From NCBI GenBank assembly GCA_964362395.1, contig CAYIER010000002.1, positions 1-38,785 of the forward strand: a DNA stretch of 38,785 bases, in the 5' to 3' direction. Each line of letters starts with the position of its first letter. Position 1 is the stretch's first letter. This stretch comes from an uncultured archaeon (GTDB lineage: Archaea; Iainarchaeota; Iainarchaeia; Iainarchaeales; GW2011-AR10). The notes below the pieces were generated by a model that worked only from the letters and a program-made list of their open reading frames with translations, searched no databases and was not told where the DNA came from. The translations under genes and the position numbers were made by a program. This document shows positions 2,136 to 35,875 of this stretch, piece by piece.

Positions 2136-2272
2136 CGCCCGCAAAATCAGGCGATGCCAACCGCAAAACCGGTTGACGCTGTTTGTCCCTTCTTTGACGG
2201 GACAGTCCCAGTGAAATTGGGACAAATTCGCCAACAGAATTTGCCGTTGCTTTTGTCCCGCCAAAGCGGAAC
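2136..2272. repeat. Mosaic hairpin element, copy A (six consecutive short hairpins between L24e and ndk)
   Basis: Hairpins: cgcccg-caaaat-caggcg, caaccg-caaaac-cggttg, gtcccttc-ttt-gacgggac, gtccca-gtgaaat-tgggac, aaattc-gccaaca-gaattt, gtcccgc-caaa-gcggaac. Collinear with copy J. Confidence 0.8.
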
Positions 2273-2288
2273 CACTTTGCACAAAATT

Positions 2289-2495
2289 TTATTTTGTCTT
2301 TTCACCTTTTTTCATTATTGCCTTGACCTTGTGGTGCGCTGCAGTCCACTTGACTTTCTGCGGAGACCTTTCAAGCTCAAGCAAATTTTTTTCGCACTTT
2401 CTGGAGCAGAAATAAAAAATCGTTCCGTCCTTTTTTGCAAAAATTTTTCCGGTTCCTCTTTCAATTCCTGACCCGCAAAACGAACAATTAACCAT
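2289..2495 (-). CDS. rpl24e: 50S ribosomal protein L24e
   Basis: CSFCGSGIERGTG...FCSRKCEKN zinc-ribbon signature, in the conserved L7Ae-S28e-L24e-ndk synteny. Confidence 0.9.
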   Translation of the reverse strand: MVNCSFCGSGIERGTGKIFAKKDGTIFYFCSRKCEKNLLELERSPQKVKWTAAHHKVKAIMKKGEKTK

Positions 2496-2513
2496 TGGTG
2501 CATCAACTCTTTT

Positions 2514-2720
2514 TCACTTTGCCTTGATTTCCTTTGCTTCGCGCTCCGTGCTCAACAAAACAATTATGTCGCCTTTCTTTACGGCTCCCTTGACGTTGCG
2601 CCTCTTTACCCTGCCCTCTTCTGGCCCCTCAAGTATCTTGCAAAGGACCTGGACAATTTCGCCGTAAACCCCTGTCCTTTGGATAATTTCAACCACTTCA
2701 GCCGGTGTTCCCTTGTCCAT
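2514..2720 (-). CDS. rps28e: 30S ribosomal protein S28e
   Basis: [19 protein letters not shown]...[23 protein letters not shown] pattern. Confidence 0.9.
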
Positions 2721-2734
2721 CTTTTTTCACCCAT

Positions 2735-3100
2735 TTAGTTTTTCAGGCCGCTCAATTTTTTTGCAAGGTCGTCAATGTCCTTTTTTGCGTCCCCCTCTGC
2801 GAGCACAGCAACCGAACTTGTCGAAACCCCAAGGCCGGCAAATTTTCCAAGCTCCTGCTTTGTTGAAACATAACTAAACGGGACGCCTTTTTCCCTGCAC
2901 AAAATAGGCAGGTGCATTACTATTTCTGGCGGGGAAACATCCTTTGCGATAAGAACAAGCTTTGCGTTCCCGCGCTCGATTGCCTTTGTGACCTCGTTTG
3001 AGCCGACCTTTAACTTGCCGGTCTTTTTTACCTTGTCAAGCACCCTCAACTGGGCTTCTTCGACTTCCTTTGGTACTTCAAACTTTACAAATTGCGCCAT
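2735..3100 (-). CDS. rpl7ae: 50S ribosomal protein L7Ae (K-turn binding protein)
   Basis: KVGSNEVTKAIERGNAKLVLIAKDVSPPEIV.HLP.LC.EKG.P motif. GGAGGT Shine-Dalgarno sequence upstream of the ATG. Confidence 0.95.
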   Translation of the reverse strand: MAQFVKFEVPKEVEEAQLRVLDKVKKTGKLKVGSNEVTKAIERGNAKLVLIAKDVSPPEIVMHLPILCREKGVPFSYVSTKQELGKFAGLGVSTSSVAVLAEGDAKKDIDDLAKKLSGLKN

Positions 3101-3134
3101 ATGCTTTTACCTCCAAAAAATTTTATCATCGGTA

Positions 3135-3210
3135 CGCCGGCAAATTCCGGCGACAAATTTGTCCCGTCTGCGACGGGACTTCCATGCACCAACAAATAAT
3201 ACTCATTGGC
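3135..3210. repeat. Mosaic hairpin element, copy B (upstream leader region of L7Ae)
   Basis: cgccgg-caaatt-ccggcg, then acaaattt, then gtcccgtc-tgc-gacgggac. A 26-nt block tttgtcccgtctgcgacgggacttcc is identical to copy E. Confidence 0.75.
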
Positions 3211-3350
3211 CTTTTAGCTTCAAAAACAAAATCGACTAAAAAATCGATTATTTCAAAAGGGGGCCAATATATATAAAATTCCCATCACAAGCCTTAAAAG
3301 GCTATTTTCGGGGTTTTAGACCAAAAAACCAGCTTTTGACTTAGATCTGC

Positions 3351-5021
3351 TTATTTATGTGCAAACACGCATTTTATCCTGTTTGGGGAGATTTCTTCCG
3401 CGCGCGCATAGCCGAATTTTTCAAAGTACAAAACATCGCCCTCGTTTAGGTCGCCATTGTACTGCGTTATGCCAAGCATTTTTTTGCCGTCATCCATCAG
3501 GATTTCCACGTCAACGCTCTCAATCACCCAGCGAAGAATCTTTTTCCTTTCCCCGCTGCCAGGCTCATGGGTGCCCGCAAATTTTCCGGACGCAAAAAAA
3601 CCGCTTTTTTCAAGCAAATTCACATTCAGCGCTTTTTTTAGCCGAAAAACCGAACCAATTTTTACAGAATTAATTTCACTTTTTTCAACAAAAAAACTCT
3701 GGCTCCCCGCGCTAATTCCTATCCCGTGCGCCTCCATTTTCGGCGTGAACTGCACCGACAACTCAACCGGTTCGGTCAATAGTTCCGCTGGCACCGCTTT
3801 TTCCAGCAGTTCACCGCGATTGAGGTTCGCAAGCCTTGCAAACTCTATCGACGAGTCGTTTGTTTTAATCCCCAAATCAAGCACTGCCTTCTTGAGTGCC
3901 TGCGGCACAAATCCCCTTCTGCGCAGCGCGCGGATTGTCCCAAGCCGCGGGTCATCCCAGCCCGAGTAAATTCCTTTTTCGATTCCTTCCTTTATTTTCG
4001 AGGTGCTCAAAACCATTTTGCCCAATTTAATGCGCCCGAAATGAATTGAGTGCGGGTATGCCCAGCCAAAATACTCGTACAAAAATTTTTGTTTTGTCAT
4101 GTTTTGTTCGTGTTCTTGCCCGCGGATAATCAGTGTTACACCAAGCTCGTGGTCATCAATCGCTGACGCAAAATTGTACGACGGCCAGACATGAACATCC
4201 TTAACTTTTGGGTTTGGGTGCTCGACCTTGTCCACGATTTTTGCAGCCCACCAGTCGCGCACGCTCGGGTCAGGGTGCGACAAATCGGTTTTTATCCGAA
4301 GTACGGCAGAGCCCTCTTTTAATTCGTGGATGATCATTTTGTTGAAGCGCTCCATCTGCGAGTCGGAATTTTTTTCCCTGCACGGGCACGCCTTTTTTTT
4401 ACCGATTAGCTTTCTCCACTTTTCTGGCTCGCACTCGCACACATACGCGTGGCCCATTGAAATGGTTTTTCTCATAAAATCATGGTAAATTGAAAGGCGG
4501 TCTGACGCAAAAAAAACCTCTGCCGGCGGGCATCCAAGCCAGTTCAGGTCTTCAATATAAATTTCTTTTGCGTTTGCAATCGGCTTTTTCACCTTGGGAT
4601 CGGTGTCGTCAAATCGCAGGAAAAACTTTCCCAAATATTTTTTTGCATACTCAAAGCTCAGGATTGCCGCACGCGCGTTCCCCAAATGGAACGGGCCATT
4701 TGGATTTGGCGCAAAACGCGTCACAACCATGTCCTTTTTTGCCCACTCAAAATCAGGGAGACCAATCGGTTTTTCGGGCGGCTTTAATTCATAAGAGCCC
4801 TCAAATTTTTCAAACTCTTTTTCTATCCCGCCAAAATCCATTGCATTGACTTTTTTGACTGCCAAAGAAATGACCGGCATAGCCGCCTTCAAATCCAGTG
4901 CCTTGTCAAGCGCCTTCATTTTGCCGACAACAGCGCCAACATCCGCATGCCCCTCGTGCAAATAAGCGTTCTTTATTGCGTAGCGATAAGCGTCGTTTTC
5001 CAAATCCAAGCAAAACACCAA
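3351..5021 (-). CDS. gltX: Glutamyl-tRNA synthetase (archaeal type)
   Basis: RFAPNPNGPFHLGNARAA (HIGH-type motif) in a class I Glx-RS core, with VLSTSK in the KMSKS position. Confidence 0.9.
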   Translation of the reverse strand: MVFCLDLENDAYRYAIKNAYLHEGHADVGAVVGKMKALDKALDLKAAMPVISLAVKKVNAMDFGGIEKEFEKFEGSYELKPPEKPIGLPDFEWAKKDMVVTRFAPNPNGPFHLGNARAAILSFEYAKKYLGKFFLRFDDTDPKVKKPIANAKEIYIEDLNWLGCPPAEVFFASDRLSIYHDFMRKTISMGHAYVCECEPEKWRKLIGKKKACPCREKNSDSQMERFNKMIIHELKEGSAVLRIKTDLSHPDPSVRDWWAAKIVDKVEHPNPKVKDVHVWPSYNFASAIDDHELGVTLIIRGQEHEQNMTKQKFLYEYFGWAYPHSIHFGRIKLGKMVLSTSKIKEGIEKGIYSGWDDPRLGTIRALRRRGFVPQALKKAVLDLGIKTNDSSIEFARLANLNRGELLEKAVPAELLTEPVELSVQFTPKMEAHGIGISAGSQSFFVEKSEINSVKIGSVFRLKKALNVNLLEKSGFFASGKFAGTHEPGSGERKKILRWVIESVDVEILMDDGKKMLGITQYNGDLNEGDVLYFEKFGYARAEEISPNRIKCVFAHK

Positions 5022-6500: not shown

Positions 6501-6531
6501 TCGCCAAGACCGTTTTTCAGAAAGTGGCAGA

Positions 6532-6624
6532 TATAGCAAACTGCTTATATTTTTGAACATTTTATGGCAGTTTGCTATATGCAAAGAGCAATTAAAAGTT
6601 CAATTATTTATGCTCTTTGCTATA
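6532..6624 (+). repeat. 93-nt double-hairpin repeat, copy 1
   Basis: tatagcaaactgc-N24-gcagtttgctata, then tgcaaagagc-N-gctctttgctata. 92/93 identical to 31684-31776. Confidence 0.9.
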
Positions 6625-6795
6625 GTTACACAAGACCAGGCAGTCAGACATCTTTACGAAAAAATTTTAGAAGCAATTGAAAAATCTGGACGAAAAGCAA
6701 CACTAAAAAGAATGGACACACTGCATCGTGTAAATATTCAAAGATTCAGGGAACAAATTGAATACCTAAAAAGACAAATAATGCAATCTATTTAA
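6610..6795 (+). CDS. Small hypothetical helical protein (61 aa)
   Basis: Its ATG lies inside the second hairpin of repeat copy 1. The N-terminal part of ORF-track entry 6475-6795 is repeat sequence, read in a different frame at copy 2. Confidence 0.35.
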   Translation: MLFAIVTQDQAVRHLYEKILEAIEKSGRKATLKRMDTLHRVNIQRFREQIEYLKRQIMQSI

Positions 6796-8403: not shown

Positions 8404-8404
8404 T

Positions 8405-9812: not shown

Positions 9813-9868
9813 TTTTTTTATCACTTTGAATTTTTGCTTTTTTTATTGTAATCCAAATTTATATTATC

Positions 9869-9970
9869 GCCCCGTCTTCAGACGGGACACATCCGCGGTG
9901 TAACAAATTGGCAAAGAAAATATAATGATTATTCAACTGCCAATTTGTTAAAACGGACGCAAACGTTTTT
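9869..9970. repeat. Mosaic hairpin element, copy C (between tRNA-Leu and L18e)
   Basis: gccccgtc-ttca-gacgggac, then a long hairpin taacaaattggca-N24-tgccaatttgtta (13 bp perfect), then aaaacg-N8-cgtttt. Confidence 0.8.
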
Positions 9971-9984: not shown

Positions 9985-10090
9985 TGCAGGGGGGAGGATT
10001 CGAACCCCCGAAGGCACTGAGCCACAGGATCGCTCATCTTATTTTATTGCATCTTAAGTCCTGCCCATTAAACCGCTTTGGTACCCCTGC
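9985..10090 (-). tRNA. tRNA-Leu (anticodon UAA), class II, with a ~22-nt intron at the canonical 37/38 position; no encoded CCA
   Basis: Minus strand: acceptor GCAGGGG/CCCCTGC plus A73, 3-bp D stem, anticodon stem CAGGA/TCCTG with loop CTTAAGA interrupted by an insert, long variable arm GGC-TCAGT-GCC, T arm GGGGG-TTCGAAT-CCTCC. Confidence 0.8.
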
Positions 10091-13606: not shown

Positions 13607-13648
13607 CAATAAAAAAGCCGATTGCGTCCGCCCTTTGGGCACAGGCGG
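13607..13648 (-). terminator. Hairpin plus U-run downstream of secY (candidate terminator of the spc-type operon)
   Basis: Minus strand CCGCC-N11-GGCGG followed by ...GGCTTTTTTATT. A second 7-bp hairpin gccctgt/acagggc lies at 13664-13686. Confidence 0.35.
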
Positions 13649-13755
13649 CTGGTTCGCGTACATGCCCTGTCCTCCCTTAACAGGGCAAGCAACGTGACAA
13701 TAATGCCACCTAATTGCATCAAAATGCCACTAATACGGTTTTTTTTCATTTTTTT

Positions 13756-16870: not shown

Positions 16871-17382
16871 TTGTTTTCACCAAACTTTTTTTCAATTTCA
16901 GATTTCACTTTATCAAACAAAGTTACGGCATTTTCCTTCAAATGTGCCCCCTTTATCCTTTGCGCTTCAGGAAAAATTCCGGCATCATGTGGCACTTCAA
17001 TTCCCGCGTCAACTAATCCCTTCAATGCGGCAAAAACCCTTGACTTGTGCACCGGCGTCAAAAGGCCAATGTCAAGCACAGCCCGGTTTACTCCCCTGCC
17101 TTTTGCTTTCATTCCAGCAGCAAGGCCTGTCAAGTATGCCGCACTGAGGTTTCCCCTATGCATTGTCCAGCCCAATTTTGCAAGATCCATTGACTTGAAA
17201 GAAACAACCGTTTTGTCCCCCACAGGGTCAAATTCAACAATTTGGACAATCGTGCTGTTGCTTGATTTCCTTATAACCGCCCTTGGGGCACTTCCTTTCA
17301 GCAGTGAAATCCTTTTCCTGTAATTTGTCTTTTGAGAAAGCCTTCTCTTGAAAGGCATGCTGTAAGTTGAAATGTGCGTCAT
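16867..17382 (-). CDS. rpl18: 50S ribosomal protein L18
   Basis: FKRR..QKTNYRKR..LLK....R.V.RKS.N.TI.QIV motif. Confidence 0.95.
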   Translation of the reverse strand: MTHISTYSMPFKRRLSQKTNYRKRISLLKGSAPRAVIRKSSNSTIVQIVEFDPVGDKTVVSFKSMDLAKLGWTMHRGNLSAAYLTGLAAGMKAKGRGVNRAVLDIGLLTPVHKSRVFAALKGLVDAGIEVPHDAGIFPEAQRIKGAHLKENAVTLFDKVKSEIEKKFGENK

Positions 17383-17807
17383 TTTTTGGCCTCCATCACA
17401 GTGGATTCAAGGTGCTTTTTTCCCCGAAAATAACCACCCTTAACCATAAGGTATGCTTTCCTGTAAGGGATTTTCATCTTCTGTTTTCCCTGCTTTAATT
17501 CCTTAAGCTTTTTCCTCTGCGCCCGAACAGCCCTCATCCATTTTTCCTTTGGATTTGTCCGCGCCTTTGCAGTTCCCTTTCTTTTACCAAACCCTCTTTT
17601 GCTTCCCTTCTTTCTTAAAAGCGCCCTTTTCTTATTCTTGCCTGCAAGCCTTTTTTCTTTGACAATCCCTTCCTTAATCAATAACCGCAGATCCTCTTTT
17701 GTCATTGCCTCAGCCACCCTTTCATTTTCAAGCGGGCTGACCCAAATCCTGCTCTTGCCTGTTTTAAGCAATTGCCCCGCCATCCCTTTTGCTTTCTGCG
17801 CCTTCAT
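17379..17807 (-). CDS. rpl19e: 50S ribosomal protein L19e
   Basis: G.SRIWVSP......A.T.ED.R.LI.EG.....R motif. ATG at 17807 lies in the relic junction; the ORF track uses GTG at 17816. Confidence 0.9.
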   Translation of the reverse strand: MKAQKAKGMAGQLLKTGKSRIWVSPLENERVAEAMTKEDLRLLIKEGIVKEKRLAGKNKKRALLRKKGSKRGFGKRKGTAKARTNPKEKWMRAVRAQRKKLKELKQGKQKMKIPYRKAYLMVKGGYFRGKKHLESTVMEAKK

Positions 17808-17819
17808 CTTTTTCACCCG
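17803..17819. repeat. Direct repeat, proximal copy: relic of the L32e stop region overlapping the L19e start
   Basis: ttcatctttttcacccg here versus ttcatcttttccacctg at 17943-17959 (15/17), 140 nt apart, flanking hairpin element D. Confidence 0.7.
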
Positions 17820-17922
17820 CCTGCAAAATCACGCCAACAAATTGGCAATTGAACAAATTCTAGAATATTCTTTCGCCAATTTGTTGCGACACTTTCCTGC
17901 CATCCCGCTTCGCTCAATGGCA
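17818..17922. repeat. Mosaic hairpin element, copy D (between L32e and L19e)
   Basis: A degenerate caaaat-loop hairpin, then the long hairpin aacaaattggc-N28-gccaatttgtt, then gcgacactttcc, then tgccat-N-aatggca. Confidence 0.8.
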
Positions 17923-17942
17923 CTTCAAAAATCAAATTTTCA

Positions 17943-17959
17943 TTCATCTTTTCCACCTG
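17943..17959. repeat. Direct repeat, distal copy: the functional 3' end of L32e (..RWKR-TGA)
   Basis: See 17803-17819. Confidence 0.7.
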
Positions 17960-18516
17960 TTCAAAACTTTCAAGTCCAACTCGTCAGCTTTTTTCAGCAT
18001 AATTGCCCTTTTCCTTTTCCCTATCCTTGCTGCAAACCTCACTGCCACATTTTGTCCTGCAAATTGTGCAAGCTGTTCCGCCGTGGAAGCCATAACTTCA
18101 GGATAACCGCTTGGGTGCAAAAACCTTATCGCATTCGGGACACGGTAACCGATTTTCGGGTTGGCGCCATCCTCTTGCTTGAAAATAATGTCAATTCCCC
18201 GCGGGTAACGCCACTTGTTCCACTTTGCAATCGATTTCCGCCTCTTCCACCTGCCGCCAAACCTTCCCCTAAACACCGGGTGCTTGTTTCTTTTAAGCAA
18301 TTCCCTTATCTTAACAATTTTTTTGCCAACAGGCTTTTTTTTCCTCCCTTTTCTCCCCTTTTCGGCCTTTTCTGTTTTTTTCCCTTCCTTTGCCGCTGCA
18401 GGGACTTTTTTTCCTTCAACTGCCTTTTTCTGTGCCGCATGCACCTGTGGTTTCTGCTCTTTTGCGTGCATGCTTTTCCCGCCGCCGGTTTTTTTTGCTT
18501 TCTTTTCGCTTTCCAT
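17944..18516 (-). CDS. rpl32e: 50S ribosomal protein L32e (with ~60-aa Lys-rich N-terminal extension)
   Basis: HPVFRGRFG.RW.RR....KW.KWR.PRGID and AARIG.RKR motifs. Confidence 0.9.
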   Translation of the reverse strand: MESEKKAKKTGGGKSMHAKEQKPQVHAAQKKAVEGKKVPAAAKEGKKTEKAEKGRKGRKKKPVGKKIVKIRELLKRNKHPVFRGRFGGRWKRRKSIAKWNKWRYPRGIDIIFKQEDGANPKIGYRVPNAIRFLHPSGYPEVMASTAEQLAQFAGQNVAVRFAARIGKRKRAIMLKKADELDLKVLNRWKR

Positions 18517-24215: not shown

Positions 24216-24623
24216 TCATCCCCGCGCCGTGATTGCAGTGCTTGACTTTGTTGCGCCGATCCCTGCCTTTCCGTGCGACAGCCTCTTTCGGGTCAAAACA
24301 AATTCGCCCAAATAGTGGCCAAGCATTTTATCCATGACCGACATAACCTGGAATTCCTTCCCATTATAAACGGCAAACTTCAGCCCGACCATCTTTGGCA
24401 GAACCGGGAAATCCCTCAAATGCGTCCGAATGATTTTTGGCTCATGCCCCTGCTGCTTTTGCAAAAACGCGCTGCCGATTGCCCCCAAAAAACCCTTGCT
24501 GTAATTTCCCCTAAGCAAAGACCTCTTTATCCTTGAGCCTGCAATCACTGCAAACTGTGCCTCGCTCATTGCAACAAGCTCTTCCATTGTTTTTCCGCGA
24601 AAAGTAAATTCTTTTTTTACCAT
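24216..24623 (-). CDS. rps19: 30S ribosomal protein S19
   Basis: IRTH.RD..VLP.MVG....VYNGKEF..V.....M.GHYLGEF..TRK...HG motif. Confidence 0.95.
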   Translation of the reverse strand: MVKKEFTFRGKTMEELVAMSEAQFAVIAGSRIKRSLLRGNYSKGFLGAIGSAFLQKQQGHEPKIIRTHLRDFPVLPKMVGLKFAVYNGKEFQVMSVMDKMLGHYLGEFVLTRKRLSHGKAGIGATKSSTAITARG

Positions 24624-24633
24624 AACATCACAA

Positions 24634-24750
24634 CAACCGCAAAATCGGCACCAAATTGACAGTTGAACAATTCTGGATATTTTCTTTTGCCAATTCGGTG
24701 TGACACTTTTGTCCCGTCTGCGACGGGACTTCCGGCAAATAATTCATTGC
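24634..24750. repeat. Mosaic hairpin element, copy E (between L2 and S19)
   Basis: A truncated caaaat-loop hairpin, then the long hairpin caccaaattgaca-N26-tgccaattcggtg, then gtgacactttt, then gtcccgtc-tgc-gacgggac. About 85% identical to copy F over ~95 nt. Confidence 0.85.
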
Positions 24751-24769
24751 AATTTCCATAAAAACACAA

Positions 24770-25492
24770 TCACAATTTTTTATGCCTTCCCGTTCTCTTT
24801 GACGCAATCGCCCCGACCTTTCTTCCTGCAGGCGCATGCCTTGAAGTGGACTTTGATTTACCCGGATGGTGCTGTGAGCCGCCAAACGGATGCGAGTTCG
24901 GGTTCATTGCAACACCCCTCACAATCGGGTAATGCTTCCTTTTTGAATGGAACAAATGGTACCTTGGCCCGGCCTTAACCATGGGCTTTTCAACGCGCCC
25001 GCCGCCAGCGGCAAGCCCGATTGTTGCCCTGCAATGCGGGTGCAGTTCAGTTGTTTTGCCTGACGGCAACTTGACAAAAACATGCCCCTTGTCCTTTGAA
25101 AGAATCATTGAATACCCGCCGCCTGCACGCACAAGGCTTCCCCCGTCACCGGGGCTGTTCTCAATGTTAAAAATCGGGCAACCCTCAACACAGCTTTCAA
25201 GAGTCAAAACATTCCCCATTTCAAGCGCAGCATTTTTTCCAAACTCAACACGCTGCCCTACAACAGTACCCTCTGCCGCAATCGTGAAACCCATAGAGCC
25301 ATCATCAAACAAAATCTTTGCAAGCACGCTGCTGTTCGTCGGGTCATGCACAAACGCAACCAATTCCCCGACCCTCTTGCCAGTCAACTGTTTTTCGTCA
25401 AGCGAAAAATACCTTGCCACCTGCACATTGGACTTTCTTGCCCTAAAAATCGAGCCCTTCCCTTTCCTCTGGACCAAAATCCGCTTGCTCAT
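24770..25492 (-). CDS. rpl2: 50S ribosomal protein L2
   Basis: GN...L...P.G..I.NIE..PGDGG.L.R.GG and GVAMNP..HPFGG..HH.GK motifs. Confidence 0.95.
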   Translation of the reverse strand: MSKRILVQRKGKGSIFRARKSNVQVARYFSLDEKQLTGKRVGELVAFVHDPTNSSVLAKILFDDGSMGFTIAAEGTVVGQRVEFGKNAALEMGNVLTLESCVEGCPIFNIENSPGDGGSLVRAGGGYSMILSKDKGHVFVKLPSGKTTELHPHCRATIGLAAGGGRVEKPMVKAGPRYHLFHSKRKHYPIVRGVAMNPNSHPFGGSQHHPGKSKSTSRHAPAGRKVGAIASKRTGRHKKL

Positions 25493-25966: not shown

Positions 25967-25973
25967 ACATTTA

Positions 25974-26005
25974 CCACTTGCCCTCTAAAGCCTTTATCGC
26001 GTCCT
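25974..26005. repeat. Direct repeat, proximal copy: relic of the L4 3' end (DAIKALEGKW-TAA) 4 nt upstream of the L23 ATG
   Basis: ccacttgccctctaaagcctttatcgcgtcct here versus 26087-26118 ccattttccctctaaagcctttatcgcgtcct (30/32), 113 nt apart. Confidence 0.85.
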
Positions 26006-26086
26006 TACCGCCTGCAAAATCAGGCGACACTTTTTCCCCATTCTTCGAATGGGGATTCTGCGCACAAATAAAAAACATCTCCATCA
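26006..26086. repeat. Mosaic hairpin element, copy H (between L4 and L23)
   Basis: cgcctg-caaaat-caggcg (26009-26026), then acacttttt, then ccccatt-cttcg-aatgggg (26036-26054). Bracketed by the 32-nt direct repeat. Confidence 0.85.
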
Positions 26087-26890
26087 CCATTTTCCCTCTA
26101 AAGCCTTTATCGCGTCCTCGCTCCACAAAGTGAGCCTTCCCGGGACAGCGCCCGGCGCAAGGAGCTTTGCATTGACGTTTTTCACATTCACAACCTCTAC
26201 ACCCTCAATGTTTCGCGCCGCCTTAAAAATCTTCGCCGAATCACTCACAACAATCAAAACACTCTTTGCCTTCTTGTACCGCCTTCCCCTCTTCTTTCCC
26301 TTTCCAGCCCTTCTCTTCCGCGCAGCCTTTGCCCTATCAACATCCAAAATCAACGAAAGCCTCTCAAGCGCCAAAACCACATTTTTTGTCCTGTCAAGCG
26401 CCTCGATTTTTTTCTCAACAATAACTGGAAAAACAAGTTTGTCCGAAATTTTGTGCCCCCTCTTTCGCACCAGTTCCGCAACCGCTGTCGCCGCAATCGC
26501 GCTTCTTGTCGCCTTCTGCTTTTCCTTGCGGTTAATCTTTTCCTTAAGGATTTTTTCAACCTTTGGCGGATGTGCCGCCGGGCCACCAACCGCCCAAGGA
26601 ACAAGCGCTACTTTTCCCGAAGAAATATATCTCCTGTTCCGCATCCTTGGCAGCCGTGCCTTTTCAATGTTGATTGTCCTGTGCATCTGCGGCTTTCGCC
26701 TTGCACCAATATAGCGCGCAGTGTAATTCCTTCCCGCGCTCTTCTTTGTTCCCTTTGGCTGCATTGCCGCGCTCTCAATTGACAACACGGCCCGCTTTAT
26801 CAGGTTTCCATCAATCGGCTCGCTGAAAACACCCGGCAGTTCAATTTCCCGGACTTTCTGCCCCTCAATGCTCAACACGCTTGCTTTCAT
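26084..26890 (-). CDS. rpl4: 50S ribosomal protein L4
   Basis: Typical archaeal L4 (...GRNYTARYIGARR..Q......GGPAAHPPK...) located between L3 and L23. Confidence 0.95.
   Translation of the reverse strand: MKASVLSIEGQKVREIELPGVFSEPIDGNLIKRAVLSIESAAMQPKGTKKSAGRNYTARYIGARRKPQMHRTINIEKARLPRMRNRRYISSGKVALVPWAVGGPAAHPPKVEKILKEKINRKEKQKATRSAIAATAVAELVRKRGHKISDKLVFPVIVEKKIEALDRTKNVVLALERLSLILDVDRAKAARKRRAGKGKKRGRRYKKAKSVLIVVSDSAKIFKAARNIEGVEVVNVKNVNAKLLAPGAVPGRLTLWSEDAIKALEGKW
26087..26118. repeat. Direct repeat, distal copy: the functional 3' end of L4 (..EDAIKALEGKW-TGA)
   Basis: See 25974-26005. Confidence 0.85.
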
Positions 26891-26907
26891 AAAAAATCAA
26901 CCGGATT

Positions 26908-26928
26908 ATTTTTTCCCGCCACCCATTG
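26908..26928. repeat. Direct repeat, proximal copy: relic of the L3 3' end (MGGGKK-TAA) 15 nt upstream of the L4 ATG
   Basis: attttttcccgccacccattg here versus 27018-27038 attttttcccgccgcccattg (20/21), 110 nt apart. Confidence 0.85.
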
Positions 26929-27017
26929 CGGCCGCGTGCAAAATCACGCGACACTTTTGTGCCATTTCGCTTTGCTCAATGGCAATGTCATTGCTCGCCA
27001 ATAATTTGTGACTGTTC
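26929..27017. repeat. Mosaic hairpin element, copy G (between L3 and L4)
   Basis: cgcgtg-caaaat-cacgcg (26933-26950), then acacttttg, then tgccatt-tcgctttgctc-aatggca (26960-26984). Bracketed by the 21-nt direct repeat. Confidence 0.85.
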
Positions 27018-28167
27018 ATTTTTTCCCGCCGCCCATTGTAGCTTCCTTTATTTCATCCGCAACGCTTTTCTTTTCAACCTTTGCCTCTTTCTTTACAACA
27101 ATCCGCTGTGCCCGGACTTCGTCTCCTGCAACCGCTTCCTTCTCCTTCCTCTTTACCCCAAGAACAGAAAGCTCCGCGACATTAAACAAACCCTTGTAAC
27201 CAACCCTGATCGGGTCCCTTAAAGCAACAGCCCTCTTTACCGGCCCAGGCGTGCTTCCGCCAAGCAAAATAAACTGGTTCTTTATCACACCATAGCCTTC
27301 AAAACCGTGCGGCACATTTATTTCCGCAGGATTATTTGAAATCCTCAAAAGCCTCTTGTTGAGTTCCGTCCTGGACTGATACCCCATCTGGCCAGGCCTT
27401 GCAACAAACCTCATAACCGTTGAAGGATTCCACGGCCCAATACTTCCAACAACCCTTCTCTTCTTTGCCTTTCGCCTGTGCATCTTTACACCAAACCTTT
27501 TGATGACACCGGTAAAGCCCTTTCCGGCATCCACTGCCTTCACGTCAACAAACTGTTTTTCCTCAAACACCTCGTTGACTGAAAGATCCTTGCCAAGCTT
27601 TTCCTTTGCAAACTTCCACTGGTCGGCAACGCTTCCGCCAACAAAAACCTCAAACACATCCGCCACCTTTTTCCCAAAACCAAGCAAACCCGGCCTAGTG
27701 CTGCACAAAAGCTTTACTTTAACGATTTTGTCAACCTGCTTTTCCAAATCAGAAACCGTAGCATAACTTTTTTCGCCCCCTTCTTTCCCGCCCTTTTTCT
27801 TATTGCTCTTTCTCTTAAAATCAGGGTGGCGCTTCCTGAAAAACTTGTCAGGCTTCTCAACAGTCGCTTCGCCCAAAACACGCAGCGCGCCCTGCTCTTT
27901 CGTATAAGCCCTAATGCCAAAAACAGACAGCGGAGGGCACTCAATAACCGTCAAAGGAATCACGACCTGTTGCCCAAAACTCGTGGCCTTCTCCTGCTTA
28001 TTAACCGCAACCGCATGAACCATCCCAGCCTTATAGCCGACAAAATTCAACGGCTTTGCTTTCTGCCTGGAAAGCACATTGTCTGACCTAAAAGTAGCCA
28101 GTTCCCTTGCAGCCCTCTTTCTTGGGTAAAATGCCAGTGAGCCAGACCTTGGCTTGTGCCGAGTCAT
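27016..28167 (-). CDS. rpl3: 50S ribosomal protein L3
   Basis: PR.GSLAFYPRKRA, F.GYKAGM.H and GKGF.GV.KR.G....RRK motifs. First gene of the L3-L4-L23-L2 cluster. Confidence 0.95.
   Translation of the reverse strand: MTRHKPRSGSLAFYPRKRAARELATFRSDNVLSRQKAKPLNFVGYKAGMVHAVAVNKQEKATSFGQQVVIPLTVIECPPLSVFGIRAYTKEQGALRVLGEATVEKPDKFFRKRHPDFKRKSNKKKGGKEGGEKSYATVSDLEKQVDKIVKVKLLCSTRPGLLGFGKKVADVFEVFVGGSVADQWKFAKEKLGKDLSVNEVFEEKQFVDVKAVDAGKGFTGVIKRFGVKMHRRKAKKRRVVGSIGPWNPSTVMRFVARPGQMGYQSRTELNKRLLRISNNPAEINVPHGFEGYGVIKNQFILLGGSTPGPVKRAVALRDPIRVGYKGLFNVAELSVLGVKRKEKEAVAGDEVRAQRIVVKKEAKVEKKSVADEIKEATMGGGKK
27018..27038. repeat. Direct repeat, distal copy: the functional 3' end of L3 (..ATMGGGKK-TGA)
   Basis: See 26908-26928. 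Confidence 0.85.
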
Positions 28168-28324
28168 TTACATACCACTTTCAAAAACCACTGAAAATGC
28201 ACACAGGCCGGCAAAACGCCAGCAAAAAAGGGGGGAACCTTTCAAAATGCTAAAAAAAGCCAAAAAACAGCTATTTTTTTTGCATTTATATCCTTAGAAG
28301 ATTTACTAAGGATACAGTGTGCTT

Positions 28325-28393
28325 CGCCGACAAAATTCGGCGGTGCTTTCCTGCCATTTCGCTTCGCTCAATGGCAATGCGCCTTGTAGGCGC
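28325..28393. repeat. Mosaic hairpin element, copy I (upstream of the L3 operon)
   Basis: cgccga-caaaat-tcggcg, then gtgctttcc, then tgccatt-tcgcttcgctc-aatggca, then gcgcct-tgt-aggcgc. Confidence 0.8.
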
Positions 28394-29626: not shown

Positions 29627-31447
29627 TCAGTTTGGTTTGCTTGTCACCCATGCTTCTGTGCCTCTGCTTTGGGCAGCAAAGCCAATGGATAAAACAAGCA
29701 CGGCGATAGCAGCGAATGCGGCAAAGGCAATCCCGATTGCAGTTGCGTTGCCTGCCAAAAGCGCAAAAGCGCTTGAAGCAAACCCGCCGCTCTGCACCGG
29801 CGCAATCTGTCCAGCCTGCTGCATCGGGAACTCTTTTTCAAAAACAACATTTCTTGCAACTGTTTTGCCGTCAAACTCCACTGTCAAAAGCGCGTTCACC
29901 GGCGACTCATTCACGCCGTTATCGGAAACAAAAAAATTGAAATACTTTGTCTCGCCCGCGCCAATGTTTAACACAAGCGGCGTGAAAGCAAACCCTTTTT
30001 TGGGATTAGAAATTTTCACCACTGCCTGTTTTGCGCTGTGCGAAGTGTTTGCCAAAGCGACTTCTATGTCCGCCTTGCCATTCAAAAACATTACCCTTGA
30101 AGAATAACTTGAAAATACAAGCCCGCCTTCCTGCAAGTCAATTGGCGGAATTGCCGGTGTGGGCGTGTTTTTTTTCATGAAAACTTTTGAATATTTTTCC
30201 TCAAGAAGCCTTGAGCCAGAAAAAATTGAATAATAAACAAGTTCTCCATCAACTGCCCCGTTTACTGAAACAGTCCGCGAAACAATGCCGTGCGAAGGGA
30301 CAACAACAACCGACGGGTAAACAATTGCATTTTCGCTTGAAGAAATTTTTACCAACAAATCGCTTCCAGATTTGTTGTCAAGGGAAATTTCCGCAAAACC
30401 CGCAGAGCCCTCTGTGCCAATCCTTATTGGAAAAACAAATCCGAAAGAAGGCGCCAAATTTGCCGTTTGCCCGCTTCCTTTCACAAAAACCAAAAAATCC
30501 TGTTCAACACTGCACTGTTTTCCGCCTTCAAAGTGCCCGATGGCCTTAACGCTAATGCTTTCAGTTGAGTCATTTTCAGCGCCAAAAGCGTCAACTGTAA
30601 CGCTCACGCGGCCTCTGTCGCCGCCAAGGATTTTTGCATCCAAAACATTCCCAAAAGCGTTGAATCCGCTATCGTTTTCCTTGACTGTGACAGCATCAAT
30701 GAAAAAATCCTCGCCGGCATTGTTTGTAACATACAGGCTTTTTGTCACGCTCTGGTTTGCCATTGTGTCAATTCCTGTGCCAACAAATCCAAGCACATTG
30801 CCGCAATTAATTTCTGCCAGACTCGCTGGAAAATTCAATGTGTTTGGCCTGCTTTCCGCAAATTCAAGAAAAGACTCTGTTGGGGTTACCTGCTGCCAGC
30901 CCTGATTTGAAGGCACAGCGGCACTCCCGCCAGCCGCCGGAGTTACAGTAATTGTTTTCTGCACAGTTCTAAGCGTGCTTTCGGTGTTCAAACTATTTTT
31001 AATGTTAGTTAAAGCCTCCGACTGCCTTTTTGCCTCGTCCGCTTTCGCTTGCGAATTCCTCACTTCTGCCAAGGGATAAATTTTTGCATGGCTTGCAATT
31101 GGCGGGAAAAAATAATTGTAATTGTAAAAAGCCGGATAAAATCCATCAACAAGTTCGCCATAAATGCTGTACTTTGGGTATAACACACTGGCAAGTGAAT
31201 AATCTACTAGTATTTCTTTTGCCAATGTGTTACTGTAAAGGTAACCAAACCTGTGGTTTTGCACATAGCCAGAATAAATCACGCCCGAAAACGGAAGCAG
31301 AGGCACAAGGCAGCCTGCGCCCCCGCAGGCTGAAAAGAAAGCATTGCCTGCTGCAAACGAATAAAAGAAACCGCCAGCACTTACTGTGGAAAGCAAAAAC
31401 ACCAAAGCCAAGCCTACGGATAACACGTTTTTGAAAAAAGCATCCAT
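29627..31447 (-). CDS. Large cell-surface protein (N-terminal signal/TM, beta-rich repeats, C-terminal TM anchor)
   Basis: The N-terminus MDAFFKNVLSVGLALVFLLSTVSA and the C-terminus ...GNATAIGIAFAAFAAIAVLVLSIGFAAQSRG are both hydrophobic. The body is Thr/Ser/Val/Asn rich. ATG at 31447 lies ~30 nt from a TATA-like ATTTAAAT. Confidence 0.7.
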   Translation of the reverse strand: MDAFFKNVLSVGLALVFLLSTVSAGGFFYSFAAGNAFFSACGGAGCLVPLLPFSGVIYSGYVQNHRFGYLYSNTLAKEILVDYSLASVLYPKYSIYGELVDGFYPAFYNYNYFFPPIASHAKIYPLAEVRNSQAKADEAKRQSEALTNIKNSLNTESTLRTVQKTITVTPAAGGSAAVPSNQGWQQVTPTESFLEFAESRPNTLNFPASLAEINCGNVLGFVGTGIDTMANQSVTKSLYVTNNAGEDFFIDAVTVKENDSGFNAFGNVLDAKILGGDRGRVSVTVDAFGAENDSTESISVKAIGHFEGGKQCSVEQDFLVFVKGSGQTANLAPSFGFVFPIRIGTEGSAGFAEISLDNKSGSDLLVKISSSENAIVYPSVVVVPSHGIVSRTVSVNGAVDGELVYYSIFSGSRLLEEKYSKVFMKKNTPTPAIPPIDLQEGGLVFSSYSSRVMFLNGKADIEVALANTSHSAKQAVVKISNPKKGFAFTPLVLNIGAGETKYFNFFVSDNGVNESPVNALLTVEFDGKTVARNVVFEKEFPMQQAGQIAPVQSGGFASSAFALLAGNATAIGIAFAAFAAIAVLVLSIGFAAQSRGTEAWVTSKPN

Positions 31448-31542
31448 TGTATACAAATTGCGGCACACCAAGTATTTAAATGTTACTTTTTAACGAGAAT
31501 TAGTGAATTGTATGTAAATTGTATGTAAAATCCGGCTGCTTC

Positions 31543-31635
31543 AACCGCAAAATCGGCACCAAATTGACAGTTGAATAATTATGACTAATTTCTTTTGCCA
31601 ATTTGGTGTGGCGCTTTCACCTGCTAAAGCGGGAC
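31543..31635. repeat. Mosaic hairpin element, copy F (upstream of the surface protein gene)
   Basis: aaccgcaaaatcgg, then the long hairpin caccaaattgaca-N26-tgccaatttggtg, then a degenerate terminal hairpin. Close paralog of copy E. Confidence 0.85.
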
Positions 31636-31658: not shown

Positions 31659-31683
31659 CGCCCAAAATGGCTGCGTGTGCATC

Positions 31684-31776
31684 TATAGCAAACTGCTTAT
31701 ATTTTTGAACATTTTATGGCAGTTTGCCATATGCAAAGAGCAATTAAAAGTTCAATTATTTATGCTCTTTGCTATA
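31684..31776 (+). repeat. 93-nt double-hairpin repeat, copy 2
   Basis: 92/93 identical to 6532-6624. The single difference is at 31728. Confidence 0.9.
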
Positions 31777-31816
31777 ATTTGCGGAGCCAATTTGTGGCAG
31801 CATTTTTTCAGTCATG

Positions 31817-31825: not shown

Positions 31826-31847
31826 TGCGGCAGCTTATTTTGTACTG

Positions 31848-32339: not shown

Positions 32340-32344
32340 ATCTT

Positions 32345-33799: not shown

Positions 33800-33949
33800 T
33801 TTGCTTTTTCACCTCCCCTTGCACCGGAAACCCGGTGTGTCTCTTTAAATGGATTTTTAACCCACTTTCAACAAAAACTATCTGTGCAAACAATTAAAAC
33901 CATTAATCCCAATTTGGCTTCTTTGCATGGCTACCTTTGTGCAGATAGC

Positions 33950-34042
33950 TATAGCAAACTGCATTTGTTTTTGAACTATTGAGACAGTTTGCTATATGCA
34001 AAAAGCAATTAATTTGTTCAATTATCTATGCTCTTTGCTATA
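33950..34042 (+). repeat. 93-nt double-hairpin repeat, copy 3 (diverged, ~80% identical, same length)
   Basis: Shares the termini tatagcaaactg...ctctttgctata and both stems. Differences are concentrated in the loops. Confidence 0.8.
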
Positions 34043-34208
34043 TATAATTTCACACAAAAGGGCTCAAAACGCAAATTTTACAGACTGGCATTCAAATCAA
34101 TTGTTTCAAAAAAACGTTTCAACGGCGAAGGCAACCATTATTTTGAGCTATCAATCAATTCAATACCAGATATTGCCAAAATCGTAAATTTACCAAGATT
34201 ATTTTGAA

Positions 34209-34415
34209 ATGCCTATTGGGCAGGAAAAAACAATCAGTGAAAATTATGGCGGCATCTCCACAGTTGAACTCAAAAAAGGCATTCTTCAAAGCCGCTATGG
34301 CCTTGGAACAATTATTTTAACCAAAGGGGAAAACGCAATCTGGGTGATGAATATAGAGCGGTCGGACGAGGCATTCCTGAAAGTGAAGGAACTTGTTGAA
34401 AAAGCAAAGCACTAA
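34209..34415 (+). CDS. Small bacterial-PH-like (bPH/YdbS-type) domain protein
   Basis: ...RYGLGTIILTKGENAIWVMNIERSDEAFLKVKELV resembles the C-terminal strands and helix of bPH domains. Confidence 0.4.
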   Translation: MPIGQEKTISENYGGISTVELKKGILQSRYGLGTIILTKGENAIWVMNIERSDEAFLKVKELVEKAKH

Positions 34416-34503
34416 TTATGTTCAACAATTTCTTTCAATTTGGCTGCAAGCCTGTTAATATTTAATTCACTGAAAAAATCGAGATTTTCTGATTTGTCGT
34501 CCT

Positions 34504-34851
34504 TTAATCGCAAGGTAATCCTGCCAATAACCAACGGATGTGAGCCCGCAAAATTGTTTTTTTTAAAGATCTTATTTCATTAAATGGGATCTTGATTTTT
34601 TTCAGGAAAAAAATTTTTGAAATTTCAATCCGTGAACCGTTAATTGAATACCTTGAATAGCTCAAAACAACCCAGAGGACAATAAAAATGAACAACACGC
34701 CAAGCAGGGTTAAATTTTCCAGCAAAAAATCATATTTGGCCAAATAAAGCCCAACGCCATAAAATGCGGCATACAAAATTAAAATTACCGCAAAAAACGT
34801 GGTTTGCAATTTGTCCCACGAATAAACAACAAACTTTTCCATTTTGCTCAC
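34504..34851 (-). CDS. Membrane-anchored bPH-like protein; the reading frame appears broken at an A8 run and continues in another frame to 34412
   Basis: Two TM helices, then ...KIKIPFNEIRSLKK. After the homopolymer at 34557-34564 the alternative frame reads NNFAGSHPLVIGRITLRLKDDKSENLDFFSELNINRLAAKLKEIVEHN-stop. Confidence 0.5.
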   Translation of the reverse strand: MSKMEKFVVYSWDKLQTTFFAVILILYAAFYGVGLYLAKYDFLLENLTLLGVLFIFIVLWVVLSYSRYSINGSRIEISKIFFLKKIKIPFNEIRSLKKTILRAHIRWLLAGLPCD

Positions 34852-35023
34852 AGCCTGCCGTCAAATGCAGATTATAGCAAACCAAAAAAATAATTCCAAA
34901 AATTTTCATGGTTCCTTGCAAAATGCATGCATTTTGCGATGCCTCGCAGAGTTTCACTCTGCAAGGTGCTATCTATCAAACCACAAAATAAATGTAAAAT
35001 TTTATGTGGTTTGATATAATGCC

Positions 35024-35410
35024 TTAAAAATCAACCAGTTGTAGGTTGTCAATTTTTCCAAAATGCTTTTTATTCAAGGTAAAAAGCTTCTCGTTTTTTG
35101 CCAGGCAAATCCCTGCAATTGTTTCGTCATATTTTCCTATGGGGGTCCCTTTCTTCTTTTGCATTGCTTTTACTTGTACAACGTTGCTTAATTCCATTGA
35201 AGTGTAATCATAGATTTTAAATTTTTGCAGCATGAGTTTGCCTTTGTTGATAGAATCTTCCGTTGAAAAATATAGTCCGACTAAAAATTCTTCCGCATTC
35301 AAAATCGTGGTTGCAAGAGAATCAAATGTTTCAAGCCACTTGATTTTTTCAATTATTTTTTCATTGCCTTTGGAGAATGCAATTAAAACATCGGTGTCTA
35401 TGACAACCAT
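35024..35410 (-). CDS. vapC: PIN-domain toxin VapC
   Basis: VVIDTDVLI start, then conserved acidic positions (..NAEEF.., ..YDETIA..) and LFTLNKKHF. Overlaps the upstream antitoxin gene. Confidence 0.85.
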   Translation of the reverse strand: MVVIDTDVLIAFSKGNEKIIEKIKWLETFDSLATTILNAEEFLVGLYFSTEDSINKGKLMLQKFKIYDYTSMELSNVVQVKAMQKKKGTPIGKYDETIAGICLAKNEKLFTLNKKHFGKIDNLQLVDF

Positions 35411-35646
35411 AATTTATCAAGCCTTTTATCCCTTAATTTGTCAAGTTTATCTGTTTTTTTCCTGTAGCCTGTAATTGCATTTTCAACTTTTTTTGCTTCC
35501 CTTTCGGATAAAAAGCCTGCAAATTCCAAAATGCTTGTTTTCTCCTTGTCCGCAAGCCGCTCAAACAGGTCAGAAAAACTTTCTTCAGTTTTTTTTACTT
35601 TAACCAATTTATTATAAACTGTGTCTTTTATAGTCAGTGTTTTCAT
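35398..35646 (-). CDS. vapB: VapB-type antitoxin (archaeal UPF0330/COG1753-like)
   Basis: MKTLTIKDTVYNKLVKVKKTEESFSDLFERL pattern. 13-nt overlap with vapC. Confidence 0.75.
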   Translation of the reverse strand: MKTLTIKDTVYNKLVKVKKTEESFSDLFERLADKEKTSILEFAGFLSEREAKKVENAITGYRKKTDKLDKLRDKRLDKLWLS

Positions 35647-35744
35647 ATTTTTTCACAAAAACATCTGCCCATAAATGTATTTAAACATAATGTTTAAACA
35701 TTTCTCATTTTTTATAGTAATGCATGATTATTTGGCATATTGCC

Positions 35745-35875
35745 GCACCATAGAAGATGGTGCACGTATGCGTTGTAAACCAACCGCGAAATCGGTTGAC
35801 GCTTTAGTGTCCTCTTCGAGGACAGTCCCGCTGCAAGCGGGACAAATTCGTCGCCAGAATTTGCTGGCGGGCGCA
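35745..35875. repeat. Mosaic hairpin element, copy J (between archease and vapB); collinear with copy A
   Basis: Hairpins: gcaccat-agaag-atggtgc, caaccg-cgaaat-cggttg, gtcctc-ttc-gaggac, gtcccgc-tgcaa-gcgggac, aaattc-gtcgcca-gaattt (alternative fold cgccag-aatttg-ctggcg). Confidence 0.8.

Follow-up and report, generated by a model that had tools for sequence, protein, structure and literature searches.

Covarying hairpins in the ribosomal-protein cluster of a DPANN archaeon as probable end modules of a family of miniature insertion elements

A stretch of 38,785 nucleotides from an uncultured archaeon of the Iainarchaeota (assembly GCA_964362395.1, contig CAYIER010000002.1; hereafter the window) carries, between its genes, many copies of a short hairpin with a CAAAAT loop, and the question raised by this locus is what maintains a structure whose two arms change from copy to copy and yet remain complementary. 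An original prediction, made from the sequence alone, had taken these changes as the mark of selection on a structure recognised through its loop by a protein or an RNA. The analysis described here indicates that this hairpin, hereafter hairpin 1, is probably the module at the left end of insertion elements that are miniature, modular and non-coding and form a lineage-restricted family in a DPANN archaeon.

A hairpin with covarying arms and a constant loop

All hairpins of the original prediction were recovered with the arms and loops ascribed to them: CGCCCG/CAGGCG, with one C-A mismatch, at 2136-2153; CAACCG/CGGTTG at 2158-2175 and again at 35781-35798; CGCCGG/CCGGCG at 3135-3152; CGCCTG/CAGGCG at 26009-26026; CGCGTG/CACGCG at 26933-26950; and CGCCGA/TCGGCG at 28325-28342. 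The loops seen were CAAAAT, CAAATT, CAAAAC and CGAAAT. What that first reading had missed were two inverted copies on the minus strand (2232-2249 and 35852-35869), three copies with an interrupted 3′ arm (starting at 17815, 24634 and 31542), two relatives lacking hairpin 1 (9860-9965 and 37365-37460), a second hairpin downstream of the first (hairpin 2), and the target duplications flanking the modules.

Under a strict definition, which required a perfect 6-bp stem, at least four G/C per arm and a loop with at most one mismatch from CAAAAT, eight hairpins were observed in the window against 0.08 expected (with a maximum of one in 200 first-order Markov simulations), and none was found in 80 other archaeal ribosomal-protein loci amounting to 1.30 Mb. 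The bare hexamer CAAAAT was not enriched (100 observed, 102 expected), and therefore the signal resides in the hairpin and not in the word. The generic density of hairpins with 7-bp stems was non-discriminating, the window having 2.3 per 10 kb against a median of 1.1.

Covariation of hairpin 1 was evaluated on 15 independent copies held in a fixed register, of which the window supplied nine and other same-site contigs six; two degenerate copies found by context are included. In this set, 94.4% of the cells were paired, and five of the six pairs had changed on both sides. The covariation score was 0.657, above a shuffled mean of 0.196, and none of 500 shuffles reached the observed value; when the register was slid, pairing fell to 21-47%. 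Most copies had first been found by requiring the stem, a bias that was controlled by a re-collection anchored only on hairpin 2 and the linker that precedes it. In this re-collection, each hairpin 2 with a preceding linker had a paired hairpin 1 upstream, or its interrupted version. The same behaviour was observed for hairpin 2 itself, in which, over eight distinct copies, 96.9% of the cells were paired and all eight pairs had changed on both sides (score 0.795, shuffled mean 0.250, none of 500 shuffles reaching the observed value, and 31-48% pairing with the register slid). In the loop of hairpin 1, two A's were invariant, and C1 and T6 nearly so.

Thus, the compensatory change of the stems around a constant loop was borne out by shuffle-tested covariation, the linker on the 3′ side being likewise constant, and the view that this is not a decaying repeat held. 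The broader claim, that a structure is selected and recognised via its loop, stood in part: a constraint on the fold and the sequence specificity of the loop are upheld, but the hairpin, far from standing alone as a regulatory motif, would be the terminal part of an insertion element.

Modular architecture, insertion and age

The module measures about 50-130 nt and has hairpin 1 at its left end when read in the element sense, which corresponds to the plus strand of the window. Along the unit, hairpin 1 (6-bp G+C-rich stem, loop CAAAWT) is followed by a linker of the form RYRC(T/A)TT, by hairpin 2, by an optional hairpin 3, and by a tail rich in A/T, in which a (G/C/A)ATAAT box recurs. Hairpin 2 has a stem of 5-8 bp, usually closed by a triloop, and its sub-types are GTCCC(N3)-triloop-(N3)GGGAC, CCCCATTC-TTC-GAATGGGG, and TGCCATT-TC-GC-TTY-GC-TC-AATGGCA. 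Hairpin 3, of 52 nt (CAMCAAATTGRCA...TGCCAATTYGKTG), is located inside the 3′ arm of hairpin 1 in the three interrupted copies (17815, 24634 and 31542), and occurs without hairpin 1 at 9901-9950 (inverted) and 37367-37417. Units are found singly, as tandem arrays, or as tail-to-tail dimers of two units (2136-2272 and 35781-35869). Moreover, the sub-modules are shuffled among copies, as exemplified by a 26-nt stretch with hairpin 2 that is identical in the modules at 3135 and 24634, which have different hairpins 1. Altogether, the window holds 14 hairpin-1 units at 12 module-bearing sites, all of them extragenic.

The minus strand of the window encodes the archaeal S10/spc/alpha ribosomal-protein cluster (L3, L4, L23, L2, S19, L22, S3, and onwards to SecY and RpoD), of which the module-bearing sites make up nearly all the non-coding DNA. 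Across 34 consecutive operon junctions, spacing ranged from -65 to +14 nt, save at junctions with a module, a tRNA or a missed gene; the longer ones were those with modules (117, 125, 127, 146 and 197 nt), that with a tRNA and a module (280 nt), and that with a short gene below the open reading frame (ORF) cut-off. The junctions were compared with those of seven relatives having 60-71% L4 identity (L087, L088, L089 and L103-L106). Between L3 and L4, the window has 125 nt, and the relatives have 5-27 nt or, in L105, a 4-nt overlap; between L4 and L23, the window has 117 nt, and the relatives range from an ATGA overlap to 10 nt; between L2 and S19, 146 nt contrast with 9-21 nt; and between EF-1alpha and S10, 146 nt contrast with 52 nt in L089. 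Four intra-operon module sites were empty in every relative covering each junction (seven for L4/L23, five for L2/S19). Because the orthologous junctions are empty in the relatives, the modules are insertions.

Direct duplications of the target were found around these modules. The L4/L23 module (25973..26118, plus strand; hairpin 1 26009-26026, hairpin 2 26036-26054, tail CAAATAAAAAAC) is bounded by a 33-nt duplication, 25973-26005 and 26086-26118, whose copies are 94% identical. The L3/L4 module (26906..27038, plus; hairpin 1 26933-26950, hairpin 2 26960-26984, tail ..CCAATAATTTG) lies between 23-nt copies at 26906-26928 and 27016-27038. At the L2/S19 junction (24620..24775, plus), hairpin 1 starts at 24634 (CAACCG CAAAAT CGG..) and is interrupted by hairpin 3 (24649-24700), with hairpin 2 at 24711-24729, and the duplication of 14-20 nt occupies 24620-24633 and 24756-24775. 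The module of the 17.9-kb ribosomal-protein junction (17803..17957, plus) has a hairpin 1 that starts at 17815 (CGCCTG CAAAAT CA..) and is interrupted by hairpin 3 (17834-17886), with hairpin 2 at 17898-17922 and a 15-nt duplication at 17803-17817 and 17943-17957; the genes on its two sides, 17944-18516 and 17379-17816, are designated L32e and L19e by gene order only. A candidate duplication of 16 nt (3104-3119 and 3211-3226, 14/16 identical) encloses the module of the L7Ae gene's 5′ leader (3104..3226, plus; hairpin 1 3135-3152, linker ACAAATTT, hairpin 2 3161-3179, then a CAAATAAT box), where the Shine-Dalgarno (SD) sequence of the unused duplicate is altered from GGAGG to GAAGC.

Duplications therefore flank five modules of the window, four of them between operon genes, as well as four tRNA-associated modules elsewhere (see below), with lengths of 14-40 nt. 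The upstream duplicate carries the C-terminal codons and the stop of the upstream gene, and the downstream duplicate with its spacer reproduces the ancestral junction of the relatives, SD and start codon included. In the element sense, hairpin 1 was always 0-4 nt from the left duplication, and the right end was variable. The six bases 5′ of hairpin 1 were heterogeneous, the left flanks (..TCCT, ..ATTG, ..CACC, ..ACAA, ..CCAT) having no common motif, and its 3′ side reads ACAC, ACGC or GCGC.

The remaining modules of the window lie at other kinds of sites. Between L24e and NDK, a composite module (2136..2272, plus) comprises a hairpin 1 at 2136-2153, a full unit at 2158-2203 (plus; hairpin 1 2158-2175, hairpin 2 2185-2203), an inverted unit at 2205-2249 (minus; hairpin 2 2205-2223, hairpin 1 2232-2249), and an extra hairpin at 2255-2272. 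The second dimer, downstream of archease (35781..35869), has a plus unit with hairpin 1 at 35781-35798 and hairpin 2 at 35809-35823, and an inverted unit on the minus strand (35825-35869; hairpin 2 35825-35843, hairpin 1 35852-35869). Upstream of the promoter of a 614-aa gene (31542..31635, plus), a hairpin 1 starting at 31542 is broken by hairpin 3 (31557-31608), with a hairpin-2-like structure at 31618-31635. The leader of the L3 operon holds a module at 28325..28393 (plus; hairpin 1 28325-28342, hairpin 2 28352-28376, extra hairpin 28379-28393), placed between the TATA box (~28431) and a conserved leader segment (28282-28324). At the EF-1alpha/S10 junction (37365..37460, plus), hairpin 3 (37367-37417) is followed by CGCCGCATATAT, hairpin 2 (37430-37449) and AATAAT. 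The 197-nt junction downstream of SecY contains a type B module (13618..13704, plus), which reads CCGATTGCG...GGCTGGTTCGCGTACAT, a hairpin GCCCTG..CAGGGC and then ..GACAATAAT, and has the hairpin and the ATAAT tail in common with the others and a different left part; this type is also present in L093 and inside a tRNA intron of L098. Finally, an inverted module without hairpin 1 (9860..9965, minus) shows an ATTATCG box, hairpin 2 (9870-9888) and hairpin 3 (9901-9950) downstream of an intron-containing tRNA. The tRNA gene itself (9985-10090, minus) has a 25-nt intron and a long variable region, and was matched by Rfam at 45 bits and missed by ARAGORN.

Copies beyond the window were found in association with tRNA genes. 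A first metagenome pattern, TGCAAAATCANGCGACACTTT, gave no matches, and a scan with the best-conserved hairpin 2 brought up further contigs of the same site together with others from unrelated JGI samples. A 25-nt hairpin 2 (TGCCATTTCGCTTYGCTCAATGGCA) is identical in L092 (1241-1306), L101, L095 (5380-5460) and L094 (~870-990), which come from unrelated JGI samples and whose inserts differ in their other hairpins. In L092/L101 and L095, this hairpin 2 starts 2-3 nt past a tRNA-Gly, and the insert ends in a second copy of 19-20 nt of the tRNA 3′ end; a similar arrangement follows a long-arm tRNA in L094, with a duplication of ~40 nt that has an internal interruption. In L098, a tRNA is directly followed by hairpin 1 (CGCGTG CAAAGT CACGCG), the linker, hairpin 2, GATAATA... 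and 22 nt copied from the tRNA 3′ end, after which three more units follow directly. At these tRNA genes, the upstream duplicate leaves the tRNA 3′ end intact. Searches of whole modules against phage and plasmid sequences (blastn) gave no match, and in a pseudo-peptide profile search for more copies only the self match passed, short matches never being significant against 5.8 billion sequences. One match to the hairpin-2 pattern, at 10093-10117 of L091 (the same as L102, IMG/VR), falls on the 5′ part of a tRNA-Asn from a bacterium or phage, where the acceptor and D arm lie, and was rejected as a chance resemblance of hairpin 2 to a tRNA D-arm region.

Two other features of L098 were recorded, at 1222-1437 (minus) and 630-890 (minus). 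A tRNA carries a 147-nt insertion at the canonical intron position, with module-like pieces and long inverted repeats. An ORF for an 86-aa GIY-YIG nuclease (Pfam E=1.4e-16) stands directly after the four-unit module array, and neither the window nor the other loci yielded a homologue.

As regards age, L087 (67% L4 identity) has related modules at two orthologous spacers, the L3 leader and the spacer upstream of the 584/614-aa gene. In mRNA sense, the L3-leader hairpin 1 reads CGACGG...AATTTG CCGTCG in L087 and CGCCGA ATTTTG TCGGCG in the window, which amounts to two fully compensated changes. No module was found at the L3-leader site in eight other Iainarchaeota lineages. From the sharing with L087 and these eight empty lineages, it follows that the family predates the divergence of the window lineage from L087 and is restricted to that sub-clade. 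At least some copies have kept the fold over the long term, through selection, re-insertion or conversion by other copies.

The two spacers shared with L087 adjoin features of their own. Across the Iainarchaeota (window 28282-28324, minus; L087, L089, L103-L106, L001 and L003, with a variant in L002), the L3 operon has a conserved leader in which a TATA box (TTTAAATACC or TTTATATAC) is followed, after ~25-35 nt, by CACACUGUAUCC, a hairpin and GGAUAUAAAUGC; the stem of this hairpin varies among lineages and stays complementary, and its loop is often GUAAAUCUUC. This leader is a candidate ribosomal-protein autoregulatory leader, not present in Rfam. The gene next to the other spacer (window 29627-31471, minus; L087 1907-3661; L089 6221-8533) encodes a syntenic, fast-evolving protein of 580-770 aa without Pfam or NCBIfam match, which shows 36% identity between the window and L087, has hydrophobic stretches near both termini in that alignment, and is always placed, in this clade, between RtcB and the L3 operon.

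Mobile element, regulatory RNA or repair product

The best reading of the family is that of new miniature mobile elements similar to the palindromic, extragenic repeats called REP sequences, bacterial interspersed mosaic elements (BIME), BOX elements and MITEs, transposable elements of miniature size with inverted repeats. Insertion at a gene junction or at the 3′ end of a tRNA gene comes with a direct target duplication of 14-40 nt, and, where genes overlap or are coupled, the upstream duplicate retains the stop codon and the downstream duplicate the SD and the start codon. A putative mobilising enzyme recognising the folded hairpin and its specific loop on single-stranded nucleic acid would explain why the stems co-vary and the loop and linker stay constant, presumably in the manner known for REP sequences and their REP-associated tyrosine transposases (RAYTs), for the ends of IS200/IS605, or for the 3′ stem-loop of stringent LINE/SINE pairs. 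The hairpins would be kept because their fold is needed, for mobilisation or as RNA of the operon transcripts, and the constraint may benefit the element, by way of its own propagation, the host, or both. Because most copies are transcribed in highly expressed operons, an additional selection for a compact RNA fold of the mRNA strand is probably also at work.

The resemblance to REP, BIME and REPIN sequences, which are mobilised by RAYTs in bacteria, is broad. Both are short, G+C-rich, extragenic, multi-copy hairpins with stems that vary and remain complementary; both occur singly or as inverted dimers (here 2158/2249 and 35781/35869), lie between the cistrons of operons and are transcribed into mRNA. 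REP sequences are imperfect extragenic palindromes of 20-40 nt in many copies, and hairpin 1 (18 nt) and hairpin 2 (19-25 nt), with 14 units in 38.8 kb, are of this kind. A conserved tag at one end, GTAG or CGTC and unpaired, further defines REP sequences (PMC3733652). The modules differ in that they have no such tag, show a 6-bp stem with a conserved 6-nt loop and linker, are flanked by long target duplications and reside in an archaeal host; besides, no RAYT (Y1 HUH) gene was found in the window or in the small contigs of the same site. BOX (boxA-boxB-boxC), RUP, Correia/NEMIS and Rickettsia RPE elements are also built from interchangeable hairpin-folding sub-modules, with a variable number of internal units, and insert between genes or at gene ends without destroying them. 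These elements are bacterial and have duplications that are short and fixed (e.g. TA) or none, and no sequence relationship links them to the modules.

Among archaeal elements, the PATEs of haloarchaea derive from IS200/IS605 and produce no target duplications (PMC3119063). Like the modules, they are too short for a transposase, lack terminal inverted repeats, have palindromes near their termini and are heterogeneous in sequence. Unlike the modules, with their heterogeneous left flanks and duplications of 14-40 nt, IS200/IS605 elements insert beside a fixed tetra- or pentanucleotide and, like PATEs, leave the target unduplicated. PATEs are further characterised by sub-terminal hairpins at both ends that resemble those of a resident insertion sequence (IS) with TnpA/TnpB; in the modules, one hairpin is at the left end and hairpin 2 near the right end. 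DPANN genomes are reported to have high MITE densities, and the target-site duplications of MITEs are of fixed length, 2-10 bp (PMC11602168). The modules share with MITEs a non-autonomous nature, a length of 50-150 nt, an intergenic location, multiple copies and target duplications, and the tail-to-tail dimers resemble MITEs bounded by terminal inverted repeats (TIRs). They differ in that the TIRs of MITEs, of at least 10-15 bp, are lacking in single units, which carry hairpin 1 on the left and an A/T tail on the right, only the two dimers having inverted arms, which are ~60% alike, and in that their duplications measure 14, 15, 16, 19-23, 33 and ~40 nt in place of a fixed 2-10 bp. A MITE-like element with a C/D box small RNA (sRNA) has been reported in Pyrobaculum calidifontis (PMC6009581). 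Unlike archaeal C/D box sRNAs, the copies described here do not conserve the terminal C (RUGAUGA) and D (CUGA) boxes or the internal D′/C′ boxes and gave no Rfam match at E<=1. A C/D box sRNA, K-turn or L7Ae site was rejected on these boxes and on hairpin 2, which has tandem G.A pairs and no 3-nt bulge, and a known RNA family was likewise rejected, since Rfam returned tRNA only, at gathering thresholds and at E<=1.

In stringent LINE/SINE pairs, which move by target-primed reverse transcription, the hairpin end is precise and its fold and loop bases matter, the stem sequence does not, and the other end and the duplications are variable. The modules are alike, by analogy only, in their precise hairpin end, variable other end and duplications of variable length, and unlike in that no reverse transcriptase and no A-tail were found. 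To our knowledge, no such retroposon has been described in archaea. A further conjecture, which we consider of low probability, is that the modules are non-autonomous members of an undescribed archaeal mobile-element mechanism, in which a candidate reverse transcriptase or single-strand nuclease would read the loop of the terminal hairpin and integrate at staggered nicks 14-40 nt apart, with a preference for the ends of genes and for tRNA 3′ ends; certain copies, for instance that of the L3-operon leader, would perhaps since have become a domesticated RNA structure of the operon transcript.

Several points weigh against a mobile family. No transposase, RAYT, TnpA/TnpB, reverse transcriptase, HUH protein or integrase was detected in the window (Pfam/NCBIfam scans of ~35 ORFs) or in the small contigs of the same site, and mobility is therefore deduced only from which sites are filled or empty on comparison, and from the duplications. 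The variable duplications of 14-40 nt agree with no standard MITE or IS of prokaryotes, and no duplication was detectable at six further module sites, mostly in unconstrained spacers. No site was found filled in some members of the population and empty in others, the inserts being present in all of L081-L084. The hairpins maintained at the two sites shared with L087 suggest that selection has kept them, perhaps for a function in the host. The copies examined numbered only ~20.

Such a host function is the substance of the strongest alternative, possible though rather doubtful, in which the hairpin is a cis-regulatory mRNA element (loop AUUUUG, linker AAAGUGU), acting as a loop-specific binding or processing site that would, for example, stabilise or uncouple segments of the polycistronic ribosomal-protein transcript, and which was spread or recruited for that role. 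Most copies are indeed placed 8-42 nt ahead of start codons, within leaders or intercistronic spacers that are transcribed: by the promoter consensus (A)ACATTTAAATAC, the modules at 28325 and 3135 are in 5′ leaders, and the operon copies are intercistronic. The mRNA-sense (minus-sense) RNA is predicted to be more stable in 16/19 modules, the orientation is biased (11/14 units), and G.U pairs in minimum free energy folds favour the transcribed strand (24 vs 8, binomial p=0.007). The same G.U asymmetry was seen for the one inverted element, and therefore it tracks transcription and not the polarity of the element; it is compatible equally with selection on RNA folding and with a transcription-associated C-to-T bias. 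The L3-leader hairpins maintained in L087 with compensated changes also favour such a role. Examined as a structured cis-regulatory RNA, the family shows orthologous conservation with compensation at the two sites shared with L087, but the four intra-operon sites are empty in relatives; since none of the seven relatives that share this operon has the intra-operon copies, the operon can work without them. Moreover, the element is not fixed in orientation relative to transcription, being antisense in the operon, L096 and L100, and sense after the L098 tRNAs and at 9860-9965, so that the arrays following tRNAs run in the opposite sense; both orientations are as expected for an element rather than for a dedicated host signal. 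In addition, the module at 31542 and the 35.8-kb dimer lie outside obvious transcripts, and no binding protein or RNA partner was found. The regulatory reading and that of a mobile element are not mutually exclusive.

Distinctly unlikely is that the modules arose without a dedicated transposase, by templated insertion through replication template switching or break repair at hairpin-forming DNA, similar to microhomology-mediated break-induced replication (MMBIR) or fork stalling and template switching (FoSTeS), in which an upstream restart would yield the variable duplications. The duplication length of 14-40 nt, the mosaic composition, the variable right ends and the failure to find a transposase would suit such a process, but the left boundary is precise, independent events having left hairpin 1 at 0-4 nt from the duplication, the L098 tRNA is followed by two successive insertions at one and the same point, and the same hairpin 2 recurs in unrelated metagenomes.

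Chance palindromes, decaying repeats, double-stranded operators, intrinsic terminators and mobile promoters are, taken together, very improbable. A run of T3-5 located 4 nt past hairpin 1 in the element sense, and the A/T-rich tail, would recall a terminator or a promoter; however, the T-run is antisense to the genes in most copies, the excess of strict hairpins (8 vs 0.08) argues against chance, and an operator is excluded because half-sites co-vary, which is not tolerated by a protein that reads half-sites. A mobile promoter was rejected since the tail box, (G/A)ATAAT, fails to match the TTTAAATAC consensus, derived together with (A)ACATTTAAATAC from leaderless genes of this lineage. Small protein-coding genes are scarcely credible, for although 37-aa ORFs were called across the L3/L4 and L4/L23 modules in L081-L084, one of them being the database protein P0121, their start and end are the duplicated start and stop signals, the open frame differs among copies relative to the conserved nucleotide core, other copies have stops, and no homologues exist beyond the ORF itself.

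Host, neighbouring features and significance

Besides the ribosomal-protein cluster, the window contains EF-1alpha, S10, archease, RtcB, the L7Ae/S28e/L24e/NDK genes, an intein ORF and the intron-containing tRNA. Its L3 protein finds its nearest species-level genomes among Candidatus Iainarchaeum metagenome-assembled genomes, at ~52% identity, and the nearest matches of its L4 protein are labelled Diapherotrites, at no more than 71% identity. Contigs identical to the window come from 0.1-um filtrates of Hainich groundwater, the samples of this population being those of H51 (ERZ1292623/27/43). A phage origin was ruled out by the lack of a megablast match and by the chromosomal gene content, and the host, judged by its sequence relationships, is a poorly sampled, ultra-small DPANN (Iainarchaeota-like) archaeon.

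Some neighbouring features deserve mention. At the window edge (190-996, minus), an ORF carries an intein splicing domain, and an intein is also found in the RtcB of the relative L104. Two islands of low G+C content (35-38%), at 33.9-35.7 kb and 28.4-29.6 kb, contain a VapBC-like pair (35024-35646) and small ORFs of no known kind, and interrupt archease/RtcB and the 614-aa gene/L3, the corresponding genes adjoining in L089. A 101-nt repeat (6527-6627, 31679-31779 and 33945-34045; 96% and 63% identity) with two nested palindromes, TATAGCAAACTGC..GCAGTTTGCTATA and TGCAAAGAGCA..TGCTCTTTGCTATA, is located at the 5′ ends of plus-strand ORFs, inside low-G+C islands that relatives lack.

DPANN archaea have tiny, tightly packed genomes. 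Literature searches found no such DPANN element described, beyond the generic note of high MITE density. The combination of REP-like covarying hairpins with long and variable duplications has no counterpart among the prokaryotic elements described. On the practical side, the modules cause spurious ORF calls of 30-190 aa and N-terminal extensions in metagenome annotations, and they could serve as lineage markers. How an insertion can be survived between genes that are coupled in translation is shown by the long target duplications, and the finding that the non-coding DNA of the most conserved operon consists almost entirely of recently inserted hairpin modules, as the probable nature of these elements implies, would mean that even such genomes are being invaded.

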